Assembly (NCBI GenBank): GCA_947477885.1
Contig: CANJUD010000003.1
Coordinates: 215,774-279,773, forward strand
Reading direction: 5' to 3'
DNA from: Bacteroidota bacterium
GTDB lineage: Bacteria > Bacteroidota > Bacteroidia > UKL13-3
Length of the DNA stretch: 64,000 nt
Both the position numbers and the translations under genes were made by a program. The notes under the pieces are model-generated. The model did not search any database, had not been told where the DNA came from, and saw only the letters and a list, made by a program, of their open reading frames with translations. Below, piece after piece: positions 1-51,945 of the stretch. The stretch's first letter is position 1. Each line of letters begins with the position of its first letter.

Positions 1-125
1 TTGGGATATGATATTTAGTAAACAGTAATCAGTAGTCAGTAATCAGTTGCTGCCGCCAGATTTTTTTAGTTGTTGGTAAATAGTGGTCAGCAGCTAGTAT
101 CAAGTATATCAGGCGTCACCCTTTC
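1..125. repeat. Heptamer-based intergenic repeat element (CAGTAAT/CAGTAGT tandem units, GTGGTCAG and GGCGTCACC core)
   Basis: Tandem 7-nt units cagtaat-cagtagt-cagtaat-cag at 22-48; related to elements at 23080-23170 and 39664-39745 (gtggtcagt / ggcgtcagc motifs). Confidence 0.5.
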
Positions 126-146
126 ATCATTCTACTTGATACGGTT

Positions 147-506
147 TTAATCATTCACAATAAATAAAAGCGAATTATTTATTTTATACCTTACTTCGGC
201 ATAGTTGCCAACCAAATGATCTTCAATAGTGATTTTCTTTTCCAATCGTTCGGTAATTTTATTATATATAACACAACGGCCAATTCTTAAACACTCTGCA
301 ATCTGAGGCAACATTCTGATTGAAAGATTATATTCATCAGCAATCTTGTTCGCCCTTACAATCCTTTTTCCTGTGTCGTTGGCAAGGGCTTTATATAGTA
401 TTTTATCATCCTTTAATTCGGGATGTTCCTTTACCCAAATGGCAAATGGCTCAATAAAATATTTCATGGGCGTGAATAATACAAATGTATCTGTTTCCAG
501 CATCAC
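147..506 (-). CDS. hypothetical protein (119 aa), no family recognised
   Basis: Intact ORF on minus strand; immediately flanked on 3' side by heptamer repeat element; overlapping +strand ORF 346-666 judged spurious. Confidence 0.4.
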   Translation of the reverse strand: MMLETDTFVLFTPMKYFIEPFAIWVKEHPELKDDKILYKALANDTGKRIVRANKIADEYNLSIRMLPQIAECLRIGRCVIYNKITERLEKKITIEDHLVGNYAEVRYKINNSLLFIVND

Positions 507-690
507 ACAGGTTTTTAATGATATTCTTAAAGCAACTGAATCAAGTAATTTCTTTTCAATTGTTGTAATTTCAGTTTGTGCTTTTGATGCAAATGATATA
601 ATAAAAAATTATAGTGCTAAGAGTATTGAAGATGTTTTATTCATAATGTTAATTTTATTGCATTAATTTGCATCTACAAATTAAATACAA

Positions 691-1878
691 ATGAAATTAA
701 AAAGCGCCATACTATTTTTCACATTGTCATTTTCATTTGCCCATATTTTTGGACAATTACCTAGTTTCACTTTCCCCATGCAGGGAACACTAGGGAAAGA
801 TTTTTATATTGTAAATCATGTAGACCAAAATTTGACTGCTAATAAATACAAGGATTTTAACTGCGGAACCAAAAGTTACGACGGACATTTAGGTACCGAT
901 TTCGTGCTGAGAAGTTTCAGACAAATGGATAGCGGGGTAAATGTATTGGCAGCAGAAGCGGGAACTGTTATTGCAGTGATGGATACTTTTTATGATAGAA
1001 ATAAAGCAGGCAATAGTTTAGGTTTCGGAAACTATATATGTATAAAACACCCAGGAAAATATTTTGGCTATTATGGTCATCTTAAAACCAAATCTCTTAA
1101 AGTAAAAGTGGGCGATATAGTAACCGCTGGGCAAGCCATAGCTTTAGTGGGCAGTTCTGGAAATTCCACCGACCCACATGTGCATTTTGAAGTATGGTAT
1201 GATAGTACTTCACTCATTGACCCATTCACAGGAACTTGCCAATCACTAGGCGGACTATGGAAATCGCAACCAGTTTATGATACAACTCATGGTATTATAG
1301 AAACTGGATTGATAAATTTGGTACCAACTGTTGATATATTAAGAGAACGCCCTGCAAGCAAAACTATATATTATACCAACGATTCATTTGTATGCTACTG
1401 GGCTCTGGAAAAAGGCGTTCACCCGGGCGATAGTAGCCGCATCGTTTGGCTTGATCCACTGGGCAAATTGTATTATACTTATTCATTTAGCCACAATACA
1501 CAAGACTATTGGTATTACTACTTTTTTACGTATATAAACAAACCGAAAGTAGCAGGAATTTATAGTTACAAATATTATTATAATAACAAACTAAATGATA
1601 TAGGAGAATTTGAAGTAAAGTCAACTGTAAATAGTGTAGAAAATATTGAAAACAAACTTCCAATTAATATACTATATTTACCAGATGTTATTATTGTAAA
1701 TATGGAAAATAATATAACTGCCAATTATTCCTTATACGATTTAGCAGGTAGACTTATATATAATAACTCGACAAAAAATAATCAAATTATTCTTGAAAGA
1801 AATATATATAAAGGTTTCTATATATTAAATATACAATCGGGGGATTGTAGCAGGGCAGTAAAGTTGGTGTTTGAATAG
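691..1878 (+). CDS. Secreted M23 family metallopeptidase with T9SS C-terminal sorting domain
   Basis: N-terminal signal peptide (MKLKSAILFFTLSFSFAHIFGQ); M23 motifs HLGTDF ... GSSGNSTDPHVHFEVW; C-terminal ~80 aa with Por_Secre_tail-like pattern (YSLYDLAGRLIY...GFYILNIQSGD...VKLVFE). Confidence 0.8.
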   Translation: MKLKSAILFFTLSFSFAHIFGQLPSFTFPMQGTLGKDFYIVNHVDQNLTANKYKDFNCGTKSYDGHLGTDFVLRSFRQMDSGVNVLAAEAGTVIAVMDTFYDRNKAGNSLGFGNYICIKHPGKYFGYYGHLKTKSLKVKVGDIVTAGQAIALVGSSGNSTDPHVHFEVWYDSTSLIDPFTGTCQSLGGLWKSQPVYDTTHGIIETGLINLVPTVDILRERPASKTIYYTNDSFVCYWALEKGVHPGDSSRIVWLDPLGKLYYTYSFSHNTQDYWYYYFFTYINKPKVAGIYSYKYYYNNKLNDIGEFEVKSTVNSVENIENKLPINILYLPDVIIVNMENNITANYSLYDLAGRLIYNNSTKNNQIILERNIYKGFYILNIQSGDCSRAVKLVFE

Positions 1879-2023
1879 ACCTCTTTTATAATTCAAATTC
1901 AACTCTCATTGTCACGTCGAATTTATTTCAACATATGATTCTTGGCTCATTTTGCCAGTAAATAATTCTTTGCTCGGTAAGAGGGTCAAAAAAAGCTTTA
2001 AAAACTGATAGATTCAGAAAGTT

Positions 2024-2980
2024 TTACTTCAACTCCAAAAGCCCCTGCCCAAGGATATATCCTTCACAATACAATTCAAATTTATATTTACCTTTCTTGA
2101 AATCACCGGCACGTTTGTAATAGATTGAAATTATTTCACTGTTATTGGTGAAATCGATTGATTGTTTGGTAGTATATATACTTTCTTGCCCGGCATATTT
2201 AAAGGTGCCTGAGCCAGCTTGGTCATCTTTGATGGCTACACCATCAGGTCCAAATATTTTAACATATACATCTTTGCGGTTGCGGTCGGCCACTGCATTG
2301 CGGGCAAATCCGAATGAAATTTTTAGCTGTTCGGCTTTTGATGCCTTGGTAGTTTCTTGTTCTTTCCCACCACTCCTTATTCTAATTGCTAAGGCTGATA
2401 TGTTAACAGCCTCTAATATTTTTGCATTTTCTAAATCGCTTATTGCTTTACGTTTCTCGCCATCTAATTTATCCTTATCAGTTTCTAAAGTTTTAACGGA
2501 TGCTTTTAGTTCTGTATTTTCTTTTTTAACTTCATTCAATTCAACCAGTTTTTCGTCGAGTTCTTTCTTAGTCTTTTCGTAATAATACTTAAACTTATCA
2601 TACATCTCCATAGCACGTTCATAATCTTTCTTGCTCAAGTTTTTCGAATTCAATAAGCCTTGAATTTCGTTGGCCATATTATATAGCTCTGAGTTCTTTT
2701 TATCAATAACCCCATTTAATGAATCATTGATTCCACGGTAAGTTTCTAATTCTGCTTTAGCATTTGAAAGTAGTTTTTCCAAATCTGCACGTTCTTTTTT
2801 CACATCCATCAAATTGCTTTGCTCGGTTTCCAAAGCTTTGTCAGTATGAAGATACATATATAACAAATAGCCGTTCATCCCCAATAGAAACAGGATGATT
2901 AAGATATATACCAATCTATTAGACTCCTTTTTACGTTCGGGTCTAAAGTTGGCTGGACTTGGTTGTTGGTTATTTTCCAT
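2024..2980 (-). CDS. hypothetical single-pass membrane protein with long coiled-coil region
   Basis: N-terminal hydrophobic segment LVYILIILFLLGMNGYLLYMYL, then K/E-rich heptad-like region (~180 aa), C-terminal globular domain. Confidence 0.55.
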   Translation of the reverse strand: MENNQQPSPANFRPERKKESNRLVYILIILFLLGMNGYLLYMYLHTDKALETEQSNLMDVKKERADLEKLLSNAKAELETYRGINDSLNGVIDKKNSELYNMANEIQGLLNSKNLSKKDYERAMEMYDKFKYYYEKTKKELDEKLVELNEVKKENTELKASVKTLETDKDKLDGEKRKAISDLENAKILEAVNISALAIRIRSGGKEQETTKASKAEQLKISFGFARNAVADRNRKDVYVKIFGPDGVAIKDDQAGSGTFKYAGQESIYTTKQSIDFTNNSEIISIYYKRAGDFKKGKYKFELYCEGYILGQGLLELK

Positions 2981-3102
2981 AATACGTGTTATATAATACT
3001 TAGATATGCAAAATTAAACGATTTGTTCATATTAAAAACAAAAGCTATTGTTATTACGTGGACATCCTAGTCTGTTGTGTCTGAAAAAATGCTCATTGTG
3101 GG

Positions 3103-3248
3103 AATTACGAATTTTCAATTACGAATTACGAATAGTGAGCATCAAGTGGTTGGTCATGGTTCGACTACGCTCACAACCACAAACACAGGCAGTCGCATAA
3201 CCATCTAGCATCAGCCAATTCGTAATTGAAAATTCGTAATTCGTAATT
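3103..3248. repeat. MITE-like palindromic element: ~31-bp terminal inverted repeats built from AATTACGAA units around a ~80-bp core containing GGTTCGACTACGCTCAC
   Basis: Left arm aattacgaattttcaattacgaattacgaat (3103-3133), right arm aattcgtaattgaaaattcgtaattcgtaatt (3217-3248); core motif tggttcgac(t/a)(c/a)cgctcac recurs at 15455 and 30876; partial copy of arm at 12203-12245. Confidence 0.6.
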
Positions 3249-3250
3249 GA

Positions 3251-4732: not shown

Positions 4733-4740
4733 GGTGTAAT

Positions 4741-5197
4741 TTCTAAATTCTAAATTCTAATTTCTAAATTTATTTTGTTTGATTATTGAGTGCTTTTTTA
4801 TATATAGCTCCAAAAATGGTTTGAATTTCTTGGGCTTCTTTAATTAATTCAAGTCTTGATTGATCGACAGTTGTATTTTCGATATCCAACTATTTCAACC
4901 ATAGTATCGACTCTTTCGTTTCTTTTTTACATATTCTAATTTTCATCAAAAAATCCTTTTCACCTAATTTCTCGTTGGCCTCTATATAATTTGCAGCTAC
5001 TGAACCAGACGATCTTACTAGTTGTTTTACATCTTCTTTATTCCAAATATTTACTTCTATCTTCTTTACAAAAGCTCTAATGCTTTTAGCAAAATAAAAT
5101 GTCCTTTCTTCTAAATTATATATCTTTTTATTTTCGCTTTCAATTTGAGAATGTAGCATATCGAAAATTAGAATTTAGATATTAGAATTTAGAATTT
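4741..5197. mobile_element. Inverted-repeat-flanked insertion carrying a four-helix-bundle (TIGR02436-like, formerly 23S rRNA IVS) gene
   Basis: ~30-bp imperfect inverted repeats made of TTCTAAA heptamers: ttctaaattctaaattctaatttctaaattt (4741-4771) and aaaattagaatttagatattagaatttagaattt (5162-5195) bracket the single gene exactly. Confidence 0.5.
4770..5159 (-). pseudogene. four-helix-bundle protein gene interrupted by an in-frame TAG (4890-4892); ORF track shows only the N-terminal 89 aa
   Basis: 89-aa product (…NLEERTFYFAKSIRAFVKKI…RSSGSVAANYIEANEKLGEKDFLMKIRICKKETKESILWLK) matches the first three helices of the family. Reading through the TAG in the same frame adds LDIENTTVDQSRLELIKEAQEIQTIFGAIYKKALNNQTK, the expected fourth helix, ending at TAA 4770-4772. 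Confidence 0.55.
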
Positions 5198-5201
5198 TTT
5201 G

Positions 5202-5510: not shown

Positions 5511-5513
5511 ATT

Positions 5514-5903
5514 TTATTTATTTTCTATTTTATTAATTAAGTCTTCTATATCTCTTCTAAGTTTTGGAAAATCATTTTTAATAGTATAATAAACCGTTGA
5601 ATAATCGACTCCAAAATATTCATGGATTAATATATTTCTTATGCCTACTATTATTCTCCAATCTATCTGTTTATTTTCTTGTTTTAATTCTTCTGTTATT
5701 CTGGCTGATGCTTCTCCTATGTTCTCTATTAATTTTTGCAAGGCCAACTTAAGTATGTAGTCTTTTAGAAACTCTTCTTCTGCTAATTCTCCAAGAATAT
5801 CAATAGAATCTTGGGAGTACTGAAGAATATGTCTAAGTCTTGCTATATCACCCAGTTTTCCTTTCATATATAAGTCTTTTTTCTTCGTGAATATATGGTG
5901 CAA
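5514..5903 (-). CDS. hepT: HepT-like (DUF86) toxin of HepT/MNT type II TA system
   Basis: Rx4HxY motif (RNILIHEY) near C-terminus; ~115-129 aa; overlaps upstream MNT gene (alternative start at 5867 gives 20-nt overlap). Confidence 0.75.
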   Translation of the reverse strand: MHHIFTKKKDLYMKGKLGDIARLRHILQYSQDSIDILGELAEEEFLKDYILKLALQKLIENIGEASARITEELKQENKQIDWRIIVGIRNILIHEYFGVDYSTVYYTIKNDFPKLRRDIEDLINKIENK

Positions 5904-6150
5904 TATATTTTGACAATCCTTTATCTGACAATAAATCTATTTCTAATTTCAAATCATTAGAAAGTTTTAATTTCATATTTGCAAAATCAAAAAGAGATAC
6001 TTTAGCTAACTCATCCAACTCGACCAAAACATCTAAATCACTTCCAGCCACTTCTTCGTTTCGTGCGTACGAACCAAACACATAAGCCTTTTTCACGGGC
6101 TGTGTTGCAAAAAAGTTCTGTAATTTCAATTGCTGCTCTGCTGTTATCAT
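5848..6150 (-). CDS. mntA: MNT-family nucleotidyltransferase antitoxin
   Basis: GSx10DxD motif (FGSYARNEEVAGSDLDVLVE); ~100 aa; likely start MITAEQQ at 6148-6150, 2 nt after pntAA stop; upstream extension in ORF track overlaps pntAA and is rejected. Confidence 0.75.
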   Translation of the reverse strand: MITAEQQLKLQNFFATQPVKKAYVFGSYARNEEVAGSDLDVLVELDELAKVSLFDFANMKLKLSNDLKLEIDLLSDKGLSKYIAPYIHEEKRLIYERKTG

Positions 6151-6152
6151 AA

Positions 6153-7299: not shown

Positions 7300-7345
7300 G
7301 ATAGAAATAGAAGTTTATTTTTTTAGTAGTTAGTAGTCTTTAGTC
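7300..7345. repeat. Heptamer-type intergenic repeat (TAGTAGT units)
   Basis: ttttagtagttagtagtctttagtctgccgaggcgg… resembles the element at 1-125. Confidence 0.35.
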
Positions 7346-7485
7346 TGCCGAGGCGGATGTCTATGCTTACAGTGGGTTTTTTACGATCGCAATTTTCCAT
7401 AAGTTTATAACTTTGGGAGAGTTAAAGTTTTGAGGGAAGTATTCGTAAGCTATATATTTGCCGTGAAAAAATTTAAATAAAACCA

Positions 7486-7920: not shown

Positions 7921-8045
7921 TTGGGGGAGTAGAAAGACTAAAGACTTTCGTTCCGTCGGCTGATCCCGAATAAGATTCGGGAAGACGGCAATTGATACTT
8001 TATACCTTATACTATCTACTTTATACTTTTGTCTTTCCTCTTTTG
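7921..8045. repeat. Intergenic repeat element, inverted copy of the element at 22545-22650
   Basis: tatactttataccttatactatctactttatac is the reverse complement of agtataaagtagatagtataaggtataaag at 22556-22586; also the hairpin tcccgaataagattcggga, shared with 30825-30845. Confidence 0.55.
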
Positions 8046-8056
8046 TCTTTCCTCTT

Positions 8057-8803
8057 TTATTTCCTATGTATCACACCCGCAACTGCTTGTGCGGTAGGCA
8101 TAATGACGATATCATTTATATTTACATGCGGAGGTCGGTTGATGACGAATAGGATTGCTTCGGCTACGTCAGTTCCTACCAAACTTTCAAAACCTAGATA
8201 TACTTTTTTGGCTCGTTCTTCATCGCCATGGAAACGAACAATAGAAAACTCGGTTTCTACAGCACCTGGATGTATAGCTGTTACTTTTATTGGGTGCGGC
8301 AATAAATCTATACGCATCGTTTTGTTAAGCATGTCTACTGCGGCTTTTGTTGAGCAATAAACATTTCCATTAGCATAAGCTTCTTTAGCGGCTATAGAGC
8401 CTATGTTTACAATATGTCCACTGCCCCTCTCCACCATCGCCGGAAGGACTGCACGTGTTATATATAATAGTCCTTTTATATTGGTATCTATCATAATTTC
8501 CCAATCATCGATATCGCCTTTGTCAATGGTGCTCATGCCACTTGCAAGGCCCGCATTGTTTATGAGTACATCTATATGCTTCCATTCGCTTGGCAAATTT
8601 TGTATGGCACCAAAAACAGCAGCTCGGTCTCTCACATCCAACTTTATTATCATAGTTTCTGTAGGCAAATGCTTTGCAAGTTGCTGTAATCTATCTTCTC
8701 TGCGGGCTGCAAGTATGAGTCGGTAACCTTCCTTGGCCAATAGTATTGCGGTGGCCATTCCTATTCCTGATGATGCCCCTGTGATTAATGCTGTTTTGTT
8801 CAT
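8057..8803 (-). CDS. SDR family NAD(P)-dependent oxidoreductase
   Basis: TGASSGIG cofactor motif at N-terminus; YxxxK (YCSTK) catalytic motif; 248 aa. Confidence 0.85.
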   Translation of the reverse strand: MNKTALITGASSGIGMATAILLAKEGYRLILAARREDRLQQLAKHLPTETMIIKLDVRDRAAVFGAIQNLPSEWKHIDVLINNAGLASGMSTIDKGDIDDWEIMIDTNIKGLLYITRAVLPAMVERGSGHIVNIGSIAAKEAYANGNVYCSTKAAVDMLNKTMRIDLLPHPIKVTAIHPGAVETEFSIVRFHGDEERAKKVYLGFESLVGTDVAEAILFVINRPPHVNINDIVIMPTAQAVAGVIHRK

Positions 8804-10764: not shown

Positions 10765-10878
10765 GACATTGCACGAATCCGTCATGCTGAACTTGTTTCA
10801 GCATCCATAGGAAATGGAAGAGATGCTGAAATAAATTCAGCATGACTTAGCGGACAGCATGACGCGGCGGGCAGCATG
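10765..10878. repeat. Cluster of CAGCATG-based hairpins (two tandem stem-loops tgctgaa/ttcagca)
   Basis: gtcatgctgaacttgtttcagcatcc … gatgctgaaataaattcagcatgac … gacagcatgacgcggcgggcagcatgtcg. Confidence 0.45.
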
Positions 10879-12201: not shown

Positions 12202-12289
12202 ATTACGAATGGGGAATCACGAATTACGATTTTTGCGCTATCAATCTCTCTGCATTTTTGGAAAGAGAACCAATATATAATACAGATAG

Positions 12290-15367: not shown

Positions 15368-15480
15368 CAAATTGTATGTTTTATATAGTCGAAGTGCCGC
15401 CCTGAGCGCAGTCGAAGTGCCGCCCTGAGCGAAGTCGAAGGGTGGTTCGTGGTTCGACTCCGCTCACCATCTCACAACCC
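15368..15480. repeat. Intergenic repeat element: 22-bp direct repeat agtcgaagtgccgccctgagcg x2 plus core ggttcgactccgctcacca
   Basis: cgaagtgccgccctgagcgcagtcgaagtgccgccctgagcgaagtcgaagggtggttcgtggttcgactccgctcaccatc; gagcg…cgaagtgaagtcgaaggg also at 51900-51940. Confidence 0.55.
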
Positions 15481-15801
15481 AGCATCTCACGCAGCTTCAC
15501 AAACACATCAATAATTTTGATGCTCATTTCTATGGCTCTGCCACTTTTCAAAACATTGGATAACATTAAAACTACATGTTCTGTGAAGGCATAGGGCAGG
15601 TATTTCATGCTCATCTTTGGTCAATTCGAACATAAAGTGGGGTGGGAACCTTTAAAGATTACTATTTACCTGTTCCTTCAAACGCTTGGTTTTCACATCA
15701 TAAAGTTCAGCTAAATCATTATCCAACATTACTTTGTGCCCTCTGATATAATATGTCTTATTGATGATTAGTTCTTCCGATTTTACGATTGATTTTGACA
15801 T
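15381..15801 (-). pseudogene. ORF6N-domain (KilA-N-related) gene remnant
   Basis: From ATG at 15799-15801 the product is MSKSIVKSEELIINKTYYIRGHKVMLDNDLAELYDVKTKRLKEQVNSNL, a canonical ORF6N N-terminus. A TAA follows at 15652-15654. The next motif, RFPPHFMFELTKDE, is in the same frame. …YLPYAFTEHVVLMLSNVLKSGRAIEMSIKI… lies in another frame (track ORF 15381-15614), and its C-terminus is a translation of the adjacent repeat. Confidence 0.6.
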
Positions 15802-16105
15802 ATATTTCTAGTTTTTTAATAATACAAACCTAAACTAGAATTTCTCTAAGGTTGCAAAATGTAACCTTAGAAGTTTAGACAATGAGTGAACAGGATTATC
15901 AACAATGCAGACTGTCAGTATGAGTTTATCGAAGACGGCGTTCGGAGGAAATTGTTAGAATAGTATTATATAAAAAGGAACATCTAGTTTGTCGCCCTTC
16001 GATAATCCCGAATAGTCGGAACAGGATGACAAACTTCCGTTGCAGCCTTATATGATGTAGACGTTGAATGTCCTGAAAATTTAAAACTTGAAATTATATA
16101 ATTGT

Positions 16106-16408
16106 TCATACTATATCGCTTATTTGCTTTCCATGTTTGATATGATAAATAACAAGATTCGTTTTATTTTGCCTGAAAGCAAAGACCCATTTTTTGTCAA
16201 ATGTGGCACAACGTAACTTGCGTTTTGCCCAAGCCCTGTTTCTACAAATGGTGTGGGCAGATGGTTTCTTAGCTAATGCGATACCGAAATCTATCATTTT
16301 GTTAGCGTAGTTTCGTGCAGTTTCCGGCATTTTTATTTCCTCAGAAAGATACGCTGTCAATTCACTAATACTTTTCCTTGCCAATGGACCAAATAAAACT
16401 TCACTCAC
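16106..16408 (-). CDS. putative RelE/ParE-superfamily type II toxin
   Basis: 100 aa; pattern …KWVFAFRQNKTNLVIYHIKHGKQI at C-terminus resembles ParE/RelE; 4-nt overlap (ATGA) with upstream small gene. Confidence 0.45.
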   Translation of the reverse strand: MSEVLFGPLARKSISELTAYLSEEIKMPETARNYANKMIDFGIALAKKPSAHTICRNRAWAKRKLRCATFDKKWVFAFRQNKTNLVIYHIKHGKQISDIV

Positions 16409-16629
16409 ACAAGTCCTTTCTTTTTATATGATTCATCCAAGGCATCCAAAAATTCTTTCCTGAATTGCTCAGCCGAAATAGTGCCTTCTTCTTCAGTTTC
16501 AGGATCTACCTCTTCTACTTCTTCGGGCTTGTAGCCACCTTCCTGTATTTGCTTCAAGAGAATTTTTCCTCCAGGTGTTTGGTCATTTATACGAAATAGG
16601 TGTGTCATACTGCAAATATAACAAAACAT
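16405..16629 (-). CDS. putative antitoxin partner (small acidic protein), family not recognised
   Basis: 67-74 aa, acidic C-terminal half (EEVEEVDPETEEEG); translationally coupled to downstream toxin-like gene. Confidence 0.4.
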   Translation of the reverse strand: MFCYICSMTHLFRINDQTPGGKILLKQIQEGGYKPEEVEEVDPETEEEGTISAEQFRKEFLDALDESYKKKGLV

Positions 16630-22544: not shown

Positions 22545-22650
22545 TGGGGCAAAAATAGTATAAAGTAGATAGTATAAGGTATAAAGACTTTCCAGTTGGT
22601 AGTATGCTGTTGGCGGTAGCTTAAACCGAATGGCACTGACTCCTGCCTAA
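22545..22650. repeat. Intergenic repeat element (inverted copy of the 7921-8045 element, with gccg/accgaatggcactgac core)
   Basis: agtataaagtagatagtataaggtataaagactttcc…accgaatggcactgactcc; core shared with 39700 (gccgtatggcactgac) and 23113 (gccattcggcgtcagt). Confidence 0.55.
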
Positions 22651-22653
22651 CGT

Positions 22654-23022: not shown

Positions 23023-23079
23023 GTGGTTTATTTTTCTTGCTTGCAAACTTAGCTAAAATTATGCCGAAAAAAAAACTCA

Positions 23080-23170
23080 AGTAGTCAGTGGTCAGTAAAC
23101 AGTGGTCAGTGCCATTCGGCGTCAGTATGCAGGCGTCAGCTACTGTTTACTGTTTACTGACCACTAGCCC
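23080..23170. repeat. Heptamer-based palindromic repeat element (TAGTCAG/TGGTCAG/TAAACAG arms around ggcgtcag core)
   Basis: gtagtcagtggtcagtaaacagtggtcagtgccattcggcgtcagtatgcaggcgtcagctactgtttactgtttactgaccactag: arms are reverse complements. Confidence 0.6.
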
Positions 23171-28029: not shown

Positions 28030-28043
28030 GCAAAGTTAATATA

Positions 28044-28074
28044 GGATTCGGGATTCAGGATTCAGGATTCGGGG
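28044..28074. repeat. Tandem heptamer array GGATTCG-GGATTCA-GGATTCA-GGATTCG
   Basis: Directly read; reverse-complement heptamers CCCGAAT x3 occur at 31048-31070. Confidence 0.6.
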
Positions 28075-28119: not shown

Positions 28120-28290
28120 TTTAATATTTCGTCCCTACGGGACTTATGCCGTGTTGGACGTTTCTCGTTTCTACCAATATTTCGTCCCGATGGGACTTTA
28201 ATCGACATATACATAGTCCCATCGGGACGAAATATTGGTAGAATTAAGATTTGAGTTAGTATTAAAGTCCTGTAGGGACGCAATATTGAA
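28120..28290. repeat. Nested palindromic element: four ~25-bp units AATATTTCGTCCC-NN-GGGACT (2 forward, 2 inverted)
   Basis: units at ~28124, ~28176 (forward) and ~28213, ~28263 (reverse complement); unit 2 vs 3 nearly perfect 28-bp inverted repeat separated by 14 nt; each unit internally palindromic (gtccc..gggac). Confidence 0.65.
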
Positions 28291-29047: not shown

Positions 29048-29200
29048 GCCGCGAAAATAATGGTTAATTATTAATTATTAATGGTTAATGGTTAATGCCA
29101 TGCGGCAGTGTTGCGTTGCGACATTAACCATTAACCATTTATAATTCATCATTTATAATTCATCATTTATCCTTCATCATTAACCATTATTTTTGCCGCC
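29046..29200. repeat. Heptamer-based palindromic element (GGTTAAT arms around gccatgcggcag core; TTCATCA/TTTATAA units)
   Basis: ggttaattattaattattaatggttaatggttaatgccatgcggcagtgttgcgttgcgacattaaccattaaccat…; core gccatgcggcag also at 30850; ggcattaaccattaaccat also at 51869. Confidence 0.6.
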
Positions 29201-30805: not shown

Positions 30806-31072
30806 GATTCTGGACTCAGAACTCAGTCCCGAATAAGATTCGGAAGGGGCCATGCGGCAGATAGAAGTCAGTCATGGTTCGACTCCGCTCACCACGGCAT
30901 CCGTAATCAGGCGTCAGCCAAATCGTAAATCGTAAATCGTAAATCTTGCGTCAGCCCCCAAATCCCGAGGGATGACACTGTTATATAAGAGGAAAAGCAA
31001 AAAACAAAAACCCCAACGGGGTGATATTATATAAACTGGCGTCAGCCCCGAATCCCGAATCCCGAATCCCAT
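30805..31072. repeat. Composite intergenic repeat region: GGATTCT/GGACTCA units, cccgaataagattcgg hairpin, gccatgcggcag and ggttcgactccgctcacca cores, (AAATCGT)x4, (CCCGAAT)x3
   Basis: All read directly; shares separate modules with elements at 3103, 7950, 15455, 28044, 29075. Confidence 0.6.
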
Positions 31073-31107
31073 TTCCTCCCTTATATTTGCTTCAAATAAA
31101 TACCACC

Positions 31108-38031: not shown

Positions 38032-39660
38032 ATGAACGGTTTTTTCAAAATCCCAACACCTATTAATGAGCCCATTTTTCCTTATGCACCAGGCACTACA
38101 GAACGCAAATTATTAAAAGAAGCATTGGCTGATGCACGGTCGAAAACTTTAGATATACCCATGTATATAGGAGGTAAAGAAGTGAGAACAGGAAATACAA
38201 AAGATATAAATCCTCCGCATGACAAAAATCACAAACTGGGTCATTTCCATCGAGGTGATGCTTCACATGTGCAACAAGCAATCGATGCAGCCCTTGCTGC
38301 TAAAGCCGATTGGGAGAATATGCCTTGGGAACAGCGAGCTGCCATATTTTTAAAGGCTGCTGAATTATTAGCCGGACCTTATCGCTATAAATTAAATGCG
38401 GCTACTATGTTGGGTCAATCGAAAAATGCTTTTCAAGCCGAGATTGATGCTGCCTGCGAGATGATAGACTTCCTTCGTTTCAATGTAGCTTTCATGAGCG
38501 AGATATATAGCGACCAACCGATTTCATCAAAAGGGATTTGGAACAGAATAGAATACAGGGCACTTGAAGGTTTTGTATTCGCACTCACACCATTTAATTT
38601 TACTGCAATTGCGGGCAATCTTCCTGCCTCGGCAGCTATGATGGGAAATGTAATAGTATGGAAACCGGCCTTTACGCAAATATATGCAGCCAATGTGCTC
38701 ATGGAGATTTTTATAGAGGCGGGTGTGCCCGCAGGTGTTATCAATTTGGTATATGCAAGTGGCCCTGAGACAGGTGATATAATTTTTAAACATCCCGATT
38801 TTGCAGGGATACATTTTACGGGTTCAACAGGTGTGTTCCAAAATGTATGGAAACAAATTGGTGATAATATACAAACATATAAAAGCTATCCCCGAATAGT
38901 AGGCGAAACAGGTGGTAAAGATTATATAATGGTGCATCCATCAGCAAATGTTGATGTGGTGAGAACGGCAATCGTTCGTGGTGCTTTCGAGTTCCAAGGG
39001 CAAAAATGTTCAGCAGCATCGCGTGCATACTTACCCAAAAGTTTATGGACTAAATTAGAAAAAGAATTAATCGCAGAAGTTAATAATATAAAAGTAGGAC
39101 CTGTTGAAGATTTTACCAATTTTGTGAACGCAGTAATTGATGAAAAAGCTTTCGATAAAATTGCAAGCTATATTGATGGTGCCCATGCCGACCCCAATGT
39201 GGAAGTAATCGCAGGCGGCACTTATGATAAATCGCAAGGATATTTTATTAAGCCAACTATTATTCTTACGCAAAGCCCAAATTCGATAACCATGTGCGAA
39301 GAAATATTCGGACCTGTGCTCACTATATATATATATGATGATGAAAAATTTGAAGAAACATTACATATATTAGATAATACATCTCCTTATGCATTAACTG
39401 GTGCTGTGATATCGCAAGACCGTTATGCGATAGAATTGGCAACAAATATATTACGTCACTCAGCAGGCAATTTTTATATAAATGATAAACCTACGGGAGC
39501 GGTAGTAGGTCAGCAACCTTTCGGCGGCGGACGTGCAAGCGGTACAAATGATAAAGCAGGAGCAAAAGTGAATCTATTACGTTGGTGCAGTATGCGTACT
39601 ATAAAAGAAACATTTACCCCTCCCACAAATTATACCTACCCTAATTTCAGCGAAGAATAA
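38032..39660 (+). CDS. pruA: L-glutamate gamma-semialdehyde (1-pyrroline-5-carboxylate) dehydrogenase
   Basis: 542 aa aldehyde dehydrogenase; catalytic region FEFQGQKCSAASR and VGETGGKD; N-terminal extension typical of P5CDH. Confidence 0.8.
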   Translation: MNGFFKIPTPINEPIFPYAPGTTERKLLKEALADARSKTLDIPMYIGGKEVRTGNTKDINPPHDKNHKLGHFHRGDASHVQQAIDAALAAKADWENMPWEQRAAIFLKAAELLAGPYRYKLNAATMLGQSKNAFQAEIDAACEMIDFLRFNVAFMSEIYSDQPISSKGIWNRIEYRALEGFVFALTPFNFTAIAGNLPASAAMMGNVIVWKPAFTQIYAANVLMEIFIEAGVPAGVINLVYASGPETGDIIFKHPDFAGIHFTGSTGVFQNVWKQIGDNIQTYKSYPRIVGETGGKDYIMVHPSANVDVVRTAIVRGAFEFQGQKCSAASRAYLPKSLWTKLEKELIAEVNNIKVGPVEDFTNFVNAVIDEKAFDKIASYIDGAHADPNVEVIAGGTYDKSQGYFIKPTIILTQSPNSITMCEEIFGPVLTIYIYDDEKFEETLHILDNTSPYALTGAVISQDRYAIELATNILRHSAGNFYINDKPTGAVVGQQPFGGGRASGTNDKAGAKVNLLRWCSMRTIKETFTPPTNYTYPNFSEE

Positions 39661-39663
39661 TAT

Positions 39664-39745
39664 AGTAGTCAGTAAACAGTGGTCAGTAATCAGTGGCTGA
39701 CGCCGTATGGCACTGACTACTGTTTACTGACCACTGTTTACTAAA
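39664..39745. repeat. Heptamer-based palindromic repeat element (AGTCAGT/AAACAGT/GGTCAGT arms; gctgacgccgtatggcactgac core)
   Basis: agtcagtaaacagtggtcagtaatcagtggctgacgccgtatggcactgactactgtttactgaccactgtttact. Confidence 0.6.
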
Positions 39746-39758
39746 ATAAAAATATAAA

Positions 39759-46319: not shown

Positions 46320-46837
46320 TATAATATTTTAACTGATAATCTTTAACGCCTCATTGCAATCTTTTCATTAGACGTTGTTTTATTTTTTATTGGGTTTAAA
46401 TACGCTATTAATAAATTGAGTTTCGTATGATTCGGATTTTATAAGTGTCCATTTTTTCAGAATGTATTTTTCCTGTTTATAGGGTTTTTATGGGTTTGAA
46501 TCTGGTTTTCCATAAATGTTGAAGCAGCAATCGGTTGGTCAGCATAACTCTCTTTTTTGAGCCACAGCCTAGCATCTTCTGCAGTTTTGCCTGCTTCTAT
46601 TCATGCATTATTATGGTGCTTGTTACATACAATGATACCTATAAAAATTGAATAGATTACAGCTGTTAAATCATTGTTGAAAAGAAGCCAGTTTTTAAAA
46701 TTACTTCAATTGTCATTCATAAAAGCATACCTATGTTATTTGAAGTTTTCTAACGTGAAAACGCATTTATTTTAAACTTTTGGAAATTTTATTCTTGCAC
46801 ATTTTTAAAATTCTAATAAATTGCAGGCGAATTTAGG

Positions 46838-47380
46838 ATGATGGACTCAGAAATAAATACCCCCAAAATAAAGATATTATATGTTGATGATGAGCCAGGA
46901 AATCTTATTGGCTTCAAATCGCATTTTCGAAAAGACTATGATGTCCATACTTATGATTCTGCTTTAAAAGCATTAGAAGAATTGCATTTGCATGACTTTG
47001 CCATGGTGATTACAGACCAACGAATGCCTGAAATGACCGGTGTAGAGTTTCTTGAAAAACTGGTTGCAATAAATCCCGAACCTGTTAGGGTGCTGCTTAC
47101 AGGATATACTGATTTTACTGCACTAGTTGATGCTATTAATAAAGTGAATATATTTCAATACCACCAAAAACCTTGGGACGAGAACCAGATGCTTACTACC
47201 ATTAAACAAGGTACGGAGGTGTTTTTTTTAAGACGTGAACGTGTGAGGTTATTGGAAGAAGTAAAATTAAAGAACGAACAATTGGAAATAAAAAATGAGG
47301 AATTGGCCGACATGAATAATGAGTTGGAAAAGGTAAACGGGCAATTGGAGTTCCTATTGAGACAGCAATTGCTTTCTTAA
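46838..47380 (+). CDS. response regulator receiver with C-terminal coiled coil
   Basis: REC domain closely paralogous to the REC of the hybrid kinase (KILYVDDEPGNLIGF…VITDQRMPEMTGVEFL); C-terminal heptad-rich EEVKLKNEQLEIKNEELADMNNELEKVNGQLEFL. Confidence 0.75.
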   Translation: MMDSEINTPKIKILYVDDEPGNLIGFKSHFRKDYDVHTYDSALKALEELHLHDFAMVITDQRMPEMTGVEFLEKLVAINPEPVRVLLTGYTDFTALVDAINKVNIFQYHQKPWDENQMLTTIKQGTEVFFLRRERVRLLEEVKLKNEQLEIKNEELADMNNELEKVNGQLEFLLRQQLLS

Positions 47381-47401
47381 TTTATTTTAATATACATATA
47401 A

Positions 47402-47848: not shown

Positions 47849-47940
47849 CAATATTGCTGTAAATTAGTCCCAAACTATACACCCAAGATTCATTATTATA
47901 ATAAGATAAAAATATGCTGAAACGAATATATACCTTTTAG

Positions 47941-48483
47941 CCTCAATATGAATGTCTTAAATATTTAAAAAGAAAATTCGGCAATAAAATTAAATTGGTG
48001 CCAATGGGATTAGGACCCAAAGTAGAAGAAAAAACGATGTTCATATCAGATGCTCACACTATTTCTACATTTTCTGAAGATTTTATTTCTACTACACAGA
48101 ATAGTGGCAGATTCAGACAATATAATTGGAATGTGAAACGCCAAATTAAAATGACCACCCTCGATAATTTGATTAGTAAATTTGGCTTGCCTCAATTTAT
48201 TAAAATTGATGTGGAGGGATTTGAAATAGAAGTATTGGAAGGACTAACCAAAGCAATAAATACTATATCATACGAATACGCAGTGCCTGAGCAAACCGAC
48301 AATGCAGTGCTATGTTTACAAAGAATCATGGAAATTTCTGATAATAAAGTTTCTTGCAATTACTCCATTGGCGAAAGCATGAAATGGGCTTTAACAGAGT
48401 GGCGAACCCCTGAGCAAATGATTGCTGAAATCAAATCGCAAAAGTTTACCGATAAGGGCTTTGGATATATATATAAAGTATAA
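47941..48483 (+). pseudogene. FkbM-family methyltransferase, N-terminally truncated
   Basis: C-terminal FkbM signature …FIKIDVEGFEIEVLEGL… present; frame opens right after a stop at 47938-47940; no SAM-binding N-terminal half; only a TTG start at 47995. Confidence 0.5.
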
Positions 48484-48515
48484 TAAGTAAGATATTTATA
48501 TATATTAATTTTATC

Positions 48516-48552
48516 CAATAGAATATATAAAAAAAGTCTCTCAGGAATGAGA
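48516..48552. terminator. bidirectional rho-independent terminator
   Basis: aaaaaaagtctctc-aggaat-gagagactttttttat between convergent genes. Confidence 0.7.
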
Positions 48553-48632
48553 GACTTTTTTTATATCAAAATAAAAGTGTTGTGATAATGCCTTTGGTTG
48601 GTCTTGTGACCAACCAAAATAAGAGCTGTTCC

Positions 48633-50543
48633 TTATTTTACTACCACTATTTTATTAGTAGTGGTGGTATTGCCGCATGTGGTATTACTATAATATATAC
48701 CTTCTGGTAATTGTGCAGTATTTATGATAATATAATTTTGTCCTGCAGCCAAGTTTTGTTTGCCGGTTGTATAAACCATTTTGCCTGTAGCATCATATAA
48801 GTTACATATTACATCAGCAGTTTTTATAAGTGATATAGATATAGTAGTCATTTCATGTGCAGGGTTGGGGAATACAGATGCTGTAAATGTTTTTTGTTCA
48901 ACATTGTATATAGCAGTAGGGTCAAGCACTTTGCTGTAGTCAGTATTTACGGGATCCCAATTACACCAACCTTTTGTCCAGTCGTCATTAGTGGTTTGTG
49001 TGCCAGAAAATGCACCTATATAATTTACTTTATCGAAGAAGGGGTTAGATAATTTAGGGCTGCTTGATGGCACAAAATCTGGAGCATTATAGTTTGCAAA
49101 CCAATTAGAAGTATCGGTATTAATTGCCATGCTTGCTTTAAAAGGATATACTTTTCCATTGCCAAATGGATCAGCGGATGCAAAATGCGACTTGTCGGTC
49201 ATATATGCTGGGAGGGCTTTACTATTATAGCAAATCACTGAACTGCTGGTGGGAACAAAGTTAGGATTAACCAAGTTGAATGGGCTTTGTAGCTTTAAAC
49301 CATTTTGTGCATTTGCATATATCTTATTGCGATGTTTGCTTTCTTTTAACCAAGAGAAAGGCCCGTCATAAACTCCAAAAGGAGTTCCTGTAACTGTATC
49401 AGCACTTGCAGTAGTAGGGGTTAAATTTCGTGCACCATTTATTACGTACATTATTTCTTTTTGAGCAGGACTTCCTCCTGATGGAATACCTGCAATTGCC
49501 ACACCTGATATCTCCAATAAAGAGTCTTGTATATTAGCTACAGTTGAACCAAACGAAGGCGAAGACTCATCAATCAATATACCTGCAGGGTAACCTATTA
49601 GCAAACTGTTTAATATACTCATGCTGCTTCCTCTGCGTATGTGTGCAGCAGCAACAAATTGTGGATCATAAGCTGTAGAACTTGGGCTCACAAGTGGTCC
49701 AACAGCAGTTACGTTAGCAAATATGGAACGGTTGAGACCACTGGTATCGCCGGCCAAACCGGTTTTGGTGCCAGCTAAATAGCTATCACTCTCGAAACAC
49801 TTACTGCCCGATTGGTCAGCAGCATAAGGATCGCGTAAAGACACCAAAAATTGATTTTTTCCTTTGTAACCAGCATCATTATCGAAATCGTCATCCCATC
49901 CTCTATACGAAACAAGGTATTTAGCATTTACATTTCCGCCAAACCATTCGTAACTATCATCGCCACTATATGATACTTGAATATGATGAATTGTTGTAGC
50001 TTCACCCACACCGCAAAGTGTAAGTCCGTTTACTTCGTTGTTGGGAGAGAAAGCAATACCGCCAAATTCAATACGTACATAAGTTAATATACCTGAATTG
50101 TCCTGTGCATTAGTACCGCCATATAAACTACGAGGCCCGCCTTCTACCTGTGCTTGACCTGCGGTCCAGTTGGTAGGAGCACTGCCACATATAATAAGCC
50201 CGCCCCAGTCGCCATAACTGCGATTGCCTGCTGCTTGGTTACTTGTAAAAACAATTGGGTTTTTTAGCGTGCCGGCACACATAATTTTTGCACCACGCTC
50301 AATAATCAAAGTGCCTTTGGTGTTTTTGTCACCTTTAATAATAGTTCCTGGTTCAATTGTGAGTGTTGTTCCAGAGGTAACATATACATACCCTTTAATT
50401 AAGTATTGTTTATTGTTGGTCCAAGTAACGTCTGAACTAATACTGTCCTGCTGGGTAACAACAGTAACTTGTGCATTGGTAACAATTGCTGATAATCCGA
50501 TGCACAGGAATATCGCAAGCATGATTAATTTGTGTTTTTTCAT
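48633..50543 (-). CDS. secreted hypothetical protein (636 aa) with T9SS C-terminal sorting domain
   Basis: Signal peptide MKKHKLIMLAIFLCIGLSAIVTNAQ; C-terminal Por_Secre_tail-like (FTASVFPNPAHEMTTISISL…GIYYSNT…KIVVVK). Confidence 0.7.
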   Translation of the reverse strand: MKKHKLIMLAIFLCIGLSAIVTNAQVTVVTQQDSISSDVTWTNNKQYLIKGYVYVTSGTTLTIEPGTIIKGDKNTKGTLIIERGAKIMCAGTLKNPIVFTSNQAAGNRSYGDWGGLIICGSAPTNWTAGQAQVEGGPRSLYGGTNAQDNSGILTYVRIEFGGIAFSPNNEVNGLTLCGVGEATTIHHIQVSYSGDDSYEWFGGNVNAKYLVSYRGWDDDFDNDAGYKGKNQFLVSLRDPYAADQSGSKCFESDSYLAGTKTGLAGDTSGLNRSIFANVTAVGPLVSPSSTAYDPQFVAAAHIRRGSSMSILNSLLIGYPAGILIDESSPSFGSTVANIQDSLLEISGVAIAGIPSGGSPAQKEIMYVINGARNLTPTTASADTVTGTPFGVYDGPFSWLKESKHRNKIYANAQNGLKLQSPFNLVNPNFVPTSSSVICYNSKALPAYMTDKSHFASADPFGNGKVYPFKASMAINTDTSNWFANYNAPDFVPSSSPKLSNPFFDKVNYIGAFSGTQTTNDDWTKGWCNWDPVNTDYSKVLDPTAIYNVEQKTFTASVFPNPAHEMTTISISLIKTADVICNLYDATGKMVYTTGKQNLAAGQNYIIINTAQLPEGIYYSNTTCGNTTTTNKIVVVK

Positions 50544-50884
50544 TGTTTTGATTGTTATTTAATTGGTTTTTTTAAGACTTATTATATAGATGCAAAACAA
50601 TTACCTTTGAGTTACCTCAGTGTATACATGGAGTTATGAAAGAGTTAATAGTTGATTATGGGAATGTGAATAACTGTAGTTTCAATATTAAATGTTAAGG
50701 ATTGTAATTAAAATATTGTATATTTGCGGGCTTAGTATTATATCTACTTATAATATTAAAAAAAAGGCTTTAGCTCGTATTTCACTTTAGAAAAACTATT
50801 GCTTTGCACACATAACACAAACGTAACCCACGCGTAATAGCCTATTCACATTATTGTAATAATATTGCGGCAACAAAATATACT

Positions 50885-51568
50885 ATGAACAATAATATAA
50901 CCCACAAAATATTGGTGGTAGATGATGAACCAGATATTGTTGAATTTATTTCATACAATCTCATCAAAGAAGGATATAGGGTAGAGACAGCGACCAATGG
51001 CAAAGAAGCTATTGAAAAAACAAAAACATTTATTCCCGACTTAGTTTTATTAGATCTGATGATGCCTATACAAGATGGTATAGAAACATGTATTCAATTG
51101 CGTGAACTGCCTGAGATGAAAGGGAATTTTATTGTATTTCTCACTGCACGTAGCGAAGAATATTCTGAGATTAGTGGTTTCAATGCAGGTGCTGATGACT
51201 ATGTGGCAAAACCCATTAAGCCCCGTTTATTATTAAGCAGACTAAAAGCAATCCTACGTCGCAAAACCACTTTAAAAGAAACGGAAGCTTTGGATGTGGC
51301 AGATATTATAATAGATAGGGAACAGTTTATGGTCTTCCGAGGTTCTGAGAAAATACAACTTGCACGCAAAGAATTTGAACTATTATATTTACTGGCATCT
51401 AAACCTGGTAAAGTATTTAACCGCGAAACCATATTAGAAAAGATATGGGGTGATGATGTATTGGTAATCGACCGCACCATTGATGTGCATATCCGCAAAA
51501 TCCGCGAGAAATTAGGCGATGATTATATCGGTACAGTTAAAGGCGTCGGATATAAGTTTGATAAATAA
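50885..51568 (+). CDS. OmpR/PhoB-family response regulator (REC + winged-helix), no adjacent kinase
   Basis: REC (KILVVDDEPDI…LLDLMMP) and C-terminal trans_reg_C (…IDRTIDVHIRKIREKL…GVGYKF). Confidence 0.85.
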   Translation: MNNNITHKILVVDDEPDIVEFISYNLIKEGYRVETATNGKEAIEKTKTFIPDLVLLDLMMPIQDGIETCIQLRELPEMKGNFIVFLTARSEEYSEISGFNAGADDYVAKPIKPRLLLSRLKAILRRKTTLKETEALDVADIIIDREQFMVFRGSEKIQLARKEFELLYLLASKPGKVFNRETILEKIWGDDVLVIDRTIDVHIRKIREKLGDDYIGTVKGVGYKFDK

Positions 51569-51635
51569 TCCCCAATACACTCCAAAATTATTTTTAATTA
51601 ACTAAAGGCTCAAGCTATATTTGCAGCCGAGTTTG

Positions 51636-51717
51636 CCCACATGGTGGAATTGGTAGACACGCCACCTTGAGGGGGTGGTTCCGAAAGGTGTAGGAGTTCG
51701 AGTCTCCTTGTGGGCAC
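51636..51717 (+). tRNA. tRNA-Leu (anticodon GAG), class II with long variable arm, CCA not encoded
   Basis: Acceptor GCCCACA/TGTGGGC, D-arm GTG-GAATTGGTAGA-CAC, anticodon stem CCACC/GGTGG with loop TTGAGGG, variable arm TTCCGAAAGGTGT, T-arm AGGAG-TTCGAGT-CTCCT. Confidence 0.85.
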
Positions 51718-51860
51718 TATATATTTAATGATTTGTAGAAATGTGATTGAATGACTTGTTCTATGTAATTCCCACTGCAACCTATACAAATATTCTTGTC
51801 AATTTTTATATGGCTCCAGCCGACGAGTGTCAGATTTCAGAAAAACAATTCGCTTAAATC

Positions 51861-51945
51861 AGCCGTATGGCATTAACCATTAACCATTTTTACCCTGAGC
51901 AGCCCGCACTGAGCGACAGCCGAAGTGAAGTCGAAGGGAACCATT
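51861..51945. repeat. Intergenic repeat element (ggcattaaccattaaccat arm; gagcg…cgaagtgaagtcgaaggg core)
   Basis: Shares motifs with 29046-29200 and 15368-15480. Confidence 0.5.

Follow-up and report, generated by a model that had tools for sequence, protein, structure and literature searches.

It has been known since about 1990 that cyanobacteria carry tandem repeats of seven nucleotides, and since 2015 that a few other phyla do so too; in the searchable literature, we found neither a mechanism nor a function described for them. In cyanobacteria, the short tandemly repeated repetitive (STRR) sequences lie as hairpins between genes, for example between hupS and hupL, with function unknown (PMC2670836). 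Intergenic heptamer arrays have also been reported from Beggiatoaceae, Cyanobacteria and five Bacteroidetes; there, they differ between strains by indels in steps of 7 nt, may occur in a species whose close relative lacks them in the orthologous spacer, often abut start codons and can mix heptamer types within one spacer, and the main genome studied held 169 direct sets of repeats and 1 indirect set, for which translational regulation was proposed (MacGregor 2015, PMC4679880; the presence and absence between species likewise PMC4679880). An influence of heptamer repeats on nearby promoters and on translation has been proposed as well (bioRxiv 10.1101/2022.06.06.494920). For repetitive extragenic palindromes (REPs) and REP doublets forming hairpins (REPINs), long-term vertical persistence alongside dynamics within the genome has been described (PMC3337134; bioRxiv RAREFAN). 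What, then, should one make of the palindromic repeats, built of tandem heptamers around a short core, that fill many spacers of a 64,000-nt stretch (hereafter, the window) of a Bacteroidota bacterium (GenBank assembly GCA_947477885.1, contig CANJUD010000003.1, positions 215,774 to 279,773 of the forward strand)? We argue, with moderate confidence, that they belong to a lineage-wide family of noncoding palindromic repeats that acts at the level of DNA and that comes closest to REPs, to the bacterial interspersed mosaic elements (BIMEs) made of them and to the STRR hairpins of cyanobacteria.

The genes of the window are ordinary housekeeping genes and type-IX-secretion cargo genes of Bacteroidota, in DNA of ~36% GC. 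Its repeats are another matter. A first-pass annotation, made from the letters alone, had claimed 7-nt arrays at 15 or more intergenic loci, and that claim largely holds: Tandem Repeats Finder (TRF) returns ~20 sites with period-7 arrays, at or adjoining nearly all of the places listed. Perfect period-7 runs number 11, vs. 0.05 in Markov shuffles, and none of the other periods from 4 to 12 rises above 2 perfect runs. Across 218 kb of lineage DNA, TRF gives 53 arrays with a 7-nt period, 23 with a 14-nt period and 4 with a 21-nt period, with 15 or fewer for each of all the other periods; 55 of these 80 arrays, whose median length is 31 nt, lie outside long open frames, that is, in ~10% of the sequence. 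Three cores are also far too common (5 copies each, all intergenic, at counts that no shuffle reached): GCCATNCGGC with 0.25 expected, GCGTCAGC with 0.47 and TTCGACTNCGCTCA with 0.00. In all, ~15 element loci, every one of them intergenic, occupy the 64 kb, and exact copies of the best-defined, core-type element number 2. The heptamer units found here are AGTNNNC, AATTACG, TTCTAAA, AATGGTT, TAAGGNN, AAATCGT and CCCGAAT. Copy numbers given earlier for individual cores were somewhat generous: the core said to occur at least six times is present in 4 exact copies (GGCGTCAGC) plus variants, the third of three copies of ggttcgactccgctcacca (at 3157) has diverged, and the second of two copies of CCCGAATAAGATTCGGG is a 16/17 match.

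That separate loci mix the same modules, as had also been proposed, is borne out by comparison of the intergenic DNA with itself. Identical stretches are shared by 7998-8027 and 22586-22557 (30/30), by 15450-15469 and 30875-30894 (20/20) and by 7964-7980 and 30827-30843 (17/17), and nearly identical ones by 23086-23125 and 39736-39697 (38/40), by 29080-29106 and 51888-51862 (26/27) and by 28050-28074 and 31070-31046 (23/25). The last of these matches means that two units that had been counted separately, GGATTCA and CCCGAAT, are one unit read from opposite strands.

What does a complete element look like? It has two inverted arms, each of ~4-5 tandem heptamers (~31 nt), with a short asymmetric core between them, and the core consists of GCCATNCGGC followed by GCGTCAGC(C). 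The best-defined type reads (AGTNNNC)~4 – GCCATNCGGCGTCAGC – (NACTGNN)~4. Scanning metagenome and genome collections with GTCAGTGCCATNCGGCGTCAG gave 7 stretches, all from organisms of 36-38% GC, drawn from five lake-metagenome contigs (two JGI metagenome samples) and a Chitinophagaceae metagenome-assembled genome (MAG), the nearest named genome that has the core. All have the same plan, with (AGTNNNC)n AGT, then GCCATNCGGCGTCAGC, then the inverted array; all four bases occur at the free position N of GCCATNCGGCGTCAGC, and the CAGTNNN arms, which run inward whichever strand is read, measure 31 nt in 14 of 27 cases. Some cores hold an extra module, TTCGACT-N-CGCTCA, one element carries a gene, and GCGTCAGC(C) also stands immediately before an array in one-armed elements. 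The sites in the different genomes are nonorthologous, the elements at them are 80-93% identical and these repeats are the only DNA-level similarity between the window and either the metagenome contigs or the Chitinophagaceae MAG. The cores are, therefore, not confined to the window; had they been, the original proposal of a family would have been undone.

The arms differ in composition from copy to copy, and every copy still folds, at -26 to -46 kcal/mol. The arms covary: when ten copies are aligned, 78% of cells pair in register, vs. 16-55% when the partner is slid, and pairs changed on both sides number 13, vs. 6.4 in shuffles (0 of 500 shuffles reached as many). The same core is found with arms of other families (TAAGGNN, AATGGTT, AAATCGT and CCCGAAT). 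Because the arms vary and one core is combined with different arms, the conserved part of the element is its loop and the variable part is its stem.

Four loci in the window, and only four, are strong heptamer-armed hairpins (3101-3250, 23076-23170, 29048-29197 and 39660-39748; z = -6.6 to -8.0). The element at 3102-3248, directly 3' of the pntB stop codon (dG -53.2, z -6.6), has arms of (AATTACG)~4.6 at 3102-3133 and (ATTCGTA)~4.6 at 3217-3248, a 26-nt inverted repeat that is 100% complementary and an 83-nt core with TTCGACTACGCTCA at 3160-3173 and GCATCAGCC at 3208-3216; a homologous copy lies at L013 5872-5991 (L numbers denote the loci and contigs taken for comparison). The core-type hairpin at 23080-23166 (plus strand; dG -44.1, z -7.2) reads (AGTNNNC)4AGT - GCCATTCGGCGTCAG[TATGCAGGCGTCAG]C - (TACTGNN)n, with a 14-nt internal duplication in its core. 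The other core-type hairpin, at 39664-39742 (minus strand; dG -43.7, z -7.7), has the core GCCATACGGCGTCAGC on the minus strand and an inverted repeat that is 96% complementary, and it fills the spacer between an aldehyde dehydrogenase gene and an FAA-hydrolase gene. Finally, a nested hairpin at 29048-29199, between divergent genes (dG -52.5, z -8.0), is composed of (AATGGTT)n - GCCATGCGGCAGTGTTGCGTTGCGA - (CATTAAC)n plus 14-nt units, with a conserved flank pair, GCCGCGAAAATAA / TTATTTTTGCCGC, as its outer stem. At 7921-8056, the fold is moderate (z = -3.1), and 1-125, 22545-22653, 30806-31075 and 51858-51947 fold no better than shuffles, being one-armed or mosaic. Inverted arms around a core had been ascribed to the loci at large, but only about six of the 15 loci are true two-armed hairpins, and the rest are one-armed, mosaic or repeats of other kinds.

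Comparison with relatives shows both how quickly these spacers change and how stubbornly some of them do not. Syntenic loci were taken from relatives whose flanking proteins are 97%, 93%, 91%, 84% and ~70% identical, and in these, spacers free of elements align at ~90%. Where elements are present, orthologous comparisons reveal replacement, with unrelated elements between flanks that are ~85–99% identical. In the CCG/GtrA spacer, the flanks of the window and L027 are ~98% identical, including GCCGCGAAAWTAA and TTATTTTTGCCGC, and the ~130 nt between them are unrelated heptamer hairpins. That this element was replaced whole between such flanks makes turnover recent, in agreement with the suggestion of an active or recently active family. 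The site 3' of the pntB stop tells a similar story, all three of its elements standing between the same flanks: the window has the (AATTACG)-armed hairpin, L023 has an (ATTTACG)/(AAATCGT)x24 element that includes two modules of the TTCGACT type and a pair of CAGGCGTCAGC motifs, and L017 has an unrelated CGTCATTGCGAGC...GCTCGAAATGACG palindrome with no gene inside (L017 6515-6660). The aldehyde dehydrogenase/FAA-hydrolase spacer holds the same CAGTNNN-armed element in the window and in L027, the two copies differing at six points; in L029, the core and its orientation are as in the window and the arms are TAAGGNN; and L031 has TAAGGNN arms around a core that is inverted and expanded by a 21-nt insert, a core variant that recurs in L015 at an unrelated locus. 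Read by eye, without a formal scan, the junctions of ten core-type copies and five orthologous site comparisons showed no evident duplicated flank.

Persistence is best seen 3' of pntB, where a heptamer hairpin is present in the window, L023, L152 and L025 (L017 and L018 are without one). Its unit is AATTACG in the window, ATTTACG in L023, AATTATG in L152 and AATTGTG in L025, and in any one genome, both arms carry it uniformly. Some hairpins are old and have been kept at one site while the unit underwent concerted evolution. As a separate observation, one arm (the right one) at L023 8085-8195 has grown to ~24 tandem copies of AAATCGT and the opposite arm has 3-4 units, so arrays can grow very asymmetrically.

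Do these elements act as DNA or as RNA? Between co-directional genes, they take up the spacer from one gene's stop codon to the next gene's start codon, leaving gaps of -15 to +53 nt (mostly -4 to +7) to the flanking open reading frames (ORFs), and they occur between divergent and between convergent genes too. Three strand tests (mismatches, core orientation and fold) give no sign of selection on an RNA strand: G.T mismatches number 26 and A.C mismatches 29, the core lies forward to transcription in 3 cases and reverse in 5 (co-directional gene pairs), and of 15 hairpins, only 5 fold better as the sense strand (p = 0.18). With no strand preference in either core orientation or fold stability, the element behaves as a DNA-level palindrome and not as a structured RNA. 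Transcribed, it would nevertheless form a very stable stem-loop (about -26 to -57 kcal/mol), which could serve as a 3'-end barrier or as an operon-internal processing site; a stable stem-loop at an operon junction might plausibly block exonucleases or be cut by RNase III. Two other RNA-level candidates were set aside. One was a terminator, and in the stretch scanned (22-41 kb), no terminator with a U-tract was called at the elements; the other was a tRNA-like reading of GGTTCGACTCC..., in which the T-stem is limited to two base pairs, ARAGORN finds no tRNA and the module pairs with its own inverted copy.

How might such a family evolve? We infer that slippage in 7-nt steps together with correction from arm to arm would keep an array uniform on both arms, and that the unit of arms made uniform in this way could then drift between genomes, which would be the concerted evolution described above. 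Recombination between the inverted arms would flip the core, and whole arm-and-core units would occasionally be copied between loci into existing hairpins or spacers, replacing the resident element and leaving no duplicated flank of the kind we looked for. The core would be the likeliest recognition site for a putative trans-acting factor. Such copying into existing hairpins or spacers would fit the nested structures seen at 29048-29199 and in L027. Several observations weigh against this account. Polymorphism by 7-nt slippage was not found, three samples of the same strain being 100% identical; an empty site with clean junctions was not found either, since every orthologous site compared held some element, and insertion itself was never observed in the orthologous comparisons. 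Persistence at the pntB site and at that of the PF05635 gene (see below) means that much of the pattern is vertical inheritance and not movement. The window holds no transposase, HUH/Y1, reverse transcriptase or integrase gene. Moreover, CAGTNNN arms with other loops occur in GC-rich contigs, and the likeness of arms may, therefore, partly reflect a shared mechanism instead of copying.

Those GC-rich contigs deserve a closer look. In contigs L160-L168 of the viral collection IMG/VR, of 55-68% GC, (CAGTNNN)n inverted arms form hairpins with other loops (in L167, for example, between a stop codon and the next ATG), and the plan of a hairpin with heptamer arms is thus not confined to the lineage. 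The recurrence of CAGT units across phyla hints at a shared mechanism. Taken to its limit, this would mean that an enzyme system spread across phyla builds, homogenizes and relocates palindromes of 7-nt units, with CAGT heptamers and GCCATNCGGCGTCAGC as its recognition sites and hairpin loops or spacers as its targets; gene-carrying hairpins, with PF05635 or GIY-YIG genes, may be its autonomous members. We regard this as a long shot. If true, the present elements, the STRRs of cyanobacteria and the TAACTGA arrays of Beggiatoaceae would be products of one mechanism. The core GCCATNCGGCGTCAGC has at least 120 matches in the viral collection, and among the matches listed, all are attributable to chance in GC-rich (mean GC 0.62), apparently coding DNA and none has inverted arms. 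BLAST with the core-type element and the TTCGACT module gave no match in plasmids or phages. In the viral collection, the 19-mer GGTTCGACTCCGCTCACCA occurs in eight contigs (L002-L009; GC 0.39 to 0.58), where ~1 would be expected by chance on a rough estimate of how large the collection is; it forms a hairpin with an inverted CTGAGCGGAGTCGAAGG-like partner in 5 of the 8, and several copies abut a start codon. A full-text literature search found no occurrence of TTCGACTCCGCTCA, TGAGCGGAGTCGAA, CGTCATTGCGAG or CTCGCAATGACG, with shorter strings matching unrelated primers only, and turned up no published description of these cores or of REP-like or heptamer elements in Chitinophagaceae.

Perhaps nothing moves at all. 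The shared cores could be independent copies of a functional motif (a protein-binding or termination signal, for instance), with the arrays of each spacer growing purely locally as simple-sequence repeats by replication slippage. Much of what we have described would suit this explanation: at one site, units have persisted and drifted across deep divergence, one array has grown to 24 copies, one core insert is exactly 14 nt and CAGTNNN arms turn up in unrelated GC-rich contigs. In addition, heptamers are reportedly the commonest class of long simple-sequence repeats in many bacteria (Mrazek 2007, as summarised in PMC4679880). What it does not readily accommodate are identical composite stretches of 30 to 40 nt at unrelated loci, elements at nonorthologous sites in different genomes that are as alike as those above, TAAGGNN arms with the same core at several unrelated loci and the exchange of a whole element between nearly identical flanks, and we think it unlikely.

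A further possibility arises from the pnt operon. Inverted (TTCTAAA)/(TTTAGAA) arrays at 4737-4770 and 5165-5197 (4737-5197, minus strand) flank a gene, as the first-pass annotation had noticed for one locus. This gene (4770-5159, minus strand), inside the pntA-pntB operon, encodes a PF05635 protein (Avd-like four-helix, "23S rRNA intervening-sequence protein"). The window copy is a pseudogene with an in-frame TAG after codon 89; the orthologue in L023 is intact, with 129 aa and 94% identity. TTCTAAA arrays stand on both sides of the gene in four genomes (window, L023, L025 and L152), whose PF05635 proteins match the window copy at 67-94% identity. In 23S rRNA, intervening sequences are inserts that are bounded by hairpins and can hold ORFs of the PF05635 family, and one could imagine that our hairpins are gene-less derivatives of hairpin-bounded cassettes, with PF05635 or GIY-YIG cassettes as the autonomous forms that act in trans. 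Small GIY-YIG nuclease genes are indeed bracketed by palindromic repeats in two relatives, at L023 9270-9780 by CGTCATTGCGAGGAGC...GACGAAGCAATCTCC-type inverted repeats and at L025 1915-3200 by another multicopy palindromic repeat, and the palindrome 3' of pntB in L017 is a gene-less version. As mobile cargo, PF05635 fared poorly, because all close homologues with retrievable DNA sit at the same operon position (pntA-4TM/pntB) and look vertically inherited; one homologue, P0123, is recorded in a different gene neighborhood. Given also that the window copy is dead, that the TTCTAAA arms differ from those of core-type elements and that we know of no nuclease or strand-transfer activity for PF05635, we find derivation from such cassettes rather improbable.

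Could the elements instead be classical MITEs (miniature inverted-repeat transposable elements), that is, deletion derivatives of an insertion sequence (IS) moved by a DDE transposase, with the arms as terminal inverted repeats? They have inverted arms, are small (80-150 nt), intergenic and dispersed, and an insertion sequence with a DDE_Tnp_1 domain is present in relative L029. Nevertheless, this is very unlikely. MITE copies would be expected to be nearly identical, whereas ours have a core of 16-21 nt in common between freely varying arms, so that conservation lies at the center, opposite to what a MITE shows. Elements replace one another at exactly the same junctions, no duplication is evident where junctions were read by eye (again, without a formal scan), and in the window, there is neither a transposase gene nor an IS, the only inverted termini being the heptamer arms. 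Of the original label "MITE/REP-like," then, the description of dispersed, modular, palindromic intergenic repeats stands and the MITE half falls, there being no duplicated flank evident and no related transposase in the window. Weakest of all is the idea of strand-specific structured RNAs (cis-regulatory elements, terminators or small RNAs) whose RNA function the sequence family would reflect: very stable folds, positions directly after stop codons and before start codons and proposals that cyanobacterial heptamer repeats influence transcript stability or translation (PMC2670836; bioRxiv 10.1101/2022.06.06.494920) speak for it, but with core orientation random relative to transcription, G.U-type and A.C-type mismatches equal in number, no stability advantage of the sense strand, elements between divergent and convergent genes, no U-tract terminators called at elements (22-41 kb) and no Rfam match at gathering thresholds (at E <= 5, only generic hairpins such as miRNA precursors), we give it hardly any credence.

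The remaining loci of the window are less regular. At 14-120, with convergent genes on either side, a one-armed element consists of an (AGTNNNC)4AGT arm (17-47), a degenerate reversed core (TGCTGCCGCC), GTATCAA-type units and CAGGCGTCACC. A short degenerate array at 7321-7356 (TTAGTAG TTAGTAG TCTTTAG TCT, then GCCGAGGCGG) belongs to a ~100-nt stretch that the orthologous spacer of L017 lacks. The mosaic at 7921-8058, also between convergent genes, has a CCCGAAT-AAG-ATTCGGG mini-hairpin inside CCGTCGGC..GACGG, a 30-nt module in common with 22557-22586 and (CTTTTGTCTTTCCT)2; the same site in L017 holds different modules. At 10781-10878 is a palindrome of another, nonheptameric kind, with 25-nt arms (GTCATGCTGAA..TTCAGCATGAC) and 17-nt direct repeats (z -6.4), and at 12203-12231 is a degenerate, one-armed array of AATTACG units. 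An array of the TGAGCG-N-AGTCGAA / TTCGACT-N-CGCTCA module occupies 15387-15470 (period 23 nt, 2.3 copies, then the inverted copy GGTTCGACTCCGCTCACCA), and a leftover 77-aa ORF (15381-15614), beside an ORF6N fragment, runs through it. The mosaic at 22555-22641 joins the 30-nt module of 7998-8027 to half a core (ACCGAATGGCACTGAC), with no significant fold; a one-armed (GGATTCR)4 array at 28043-28074 is the reverse complement of the CCCGAAT unit at 31047-31070. The longest mosaic, 30806-31072, strings together CCCGAATAAGATTCGG, GCCATGCGGCAGATAG, GGTTCGACTCCGCTCACCA, CAGGCGTCAGCC with (AAATCGT)3.7, GCGTCAGCC and GGCGTCAGCC with (CCGAATC)3.4, and only 30975-31045 of it is in common with L027. Lastly, a one-armed element at 51862-51945, after tRNA-Leu, has GCCGTATGGC and (ATTAACC)2.6 followed by degenerate CTGAGCG..GTCGAAGGG modules. 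That tRNA-Leu(gag) was placed at 51635-51717 by ARAGORN; the Rfam scan at gathering thresholds gave no match, not even the tRNA.

A few neighbors may be recorded in passing. Between pntAA and pntA-4TM, a nucleotidyltransferase/HepT toxin-antitoxin pair (5514-6150) forms a seamless insertion, which L023 shares and which L017, L018, L025 and L152 lack. Between ruvB and the CCG-domain gene, 28120-28290 holds four copies (two direct and two inverted) of a 26-29 nt unit, AATATTTCGTCCC-NNNN-GGGACTT, a separate family of REP-like palindromes, and the L027 spacer is unrelated. A decayed region at 15381-16629 contains the 49-aa ORF6N fragment (15652-15801), the 77-aa ORF that runs into the repeat array and overlapping small ORFs at 16106-16408 and 16405-16629 with no Pfam match. 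The 518-nt "spacer" at 46320-46837 is what remains, frameshifted, of the C-terminal part of a 759-aa ThiF/nitroreductase-domain gene, which L029 and L031 carry intact in the same position, and a look-up of the protein encoded at 46838-47380 gave no record.

Why should one care about repeats of this kind? Here is a tractable case, with a regular anatomy, arms of ~31 nt and a defined loop core with one free position, and with relatives that, in the same spacer, pass by degrees from point changes in one element, through other arms on a shared core and then inversion of the core, to a wholly different element; one site shows, cleanly, both arms undergoing concerted evolution of their unit. Questions that can be put to the test are what binds the core, what causes the 7-nt step and whether replacement proceeds by copying into existing hairpins. 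There is a practical side too: the repeats probably break short-read assemblies, and they create spurious ORFs, of which the 77-aa ORF at 15381-15614 is an example.

How, finally, do these elements compare with what is known? Around the PF05635 gene (4737-5197), the likeness to 23S rRNA intervening sequences with such an ORF is plain, a hairpin-forming inverted repeat enclosing a gene for a four-helix bundle; unlike them, this cassette is in an mRNA operon (between pntA-4TM and pntB) and not in rRNA, its stems are heptamer arrays and its gene is vertically conserved at the site. With REPs, BIMEs and REPINs, the family has in common dispersed extragenic palindromes, mosaic modules, both orientations and vertical persistence over long times beside dynamics within the genome. 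Unlike in REPs, the arms are tandem heptamers (~31 nt and variable) and not one conserved palindrome of 20-40 nt, the conserved part is the loop and not the stem, there is no GTAG-type head, and a gene for a REP-associated tyrosine transposase (RAYT) was found neither in the 64-kb window nor in the relatives' loci fetched. REP/REPIN is the nearest mechanistic analogue, and the conserved palindrome and head that mark REPs are lacking here. Like the CAGTNNN units of the present elements, the STRR units CCCCAGT and CAACAGT include CAGT, and the TAACTGA of Beggiatoaceae, TCAGTTA on the other strand, is another CAGT-containing unit like ours. As in cyanobacterial STRRs, tandem intergenic units of 7 nt can pair as inverted arrays into hairpins (PMC2670836); unlike STRRs, ours are in Bacteroidota, with other units and regular arms of ~31 nt. 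An asymmetric loop core (GCCATNCGGC plus GCGTCAGC) recurs across arm families here, the loops compared being those of the present elements, and a scan for (CCCCAGT)3 found only direct arrays. The arrays are tandem, of 7 nt, intergenic and far above chance, as long heptamer repeats are, and the named STRR unit sequences are absent from them. From the mostly direct repeats of PMC4679880, they differ by their inverted arms, common cores and exchange of modules. There is one more likeness. Elhai et al., in 2008, reportedly described small dispersed repeats (SDRs) of Nostoc as conserved units of 21-27 nt that nest in other repeats, heptamer arrays included, and are said to have argued that they are mobile; a 16-21 nt core between heptamer arms looks analogous to these, with a different sequence and in a different phylum. 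The family is not of the classical MITE kind and is a variant of the heptamer repeats, a known but unexplained phenomenon.

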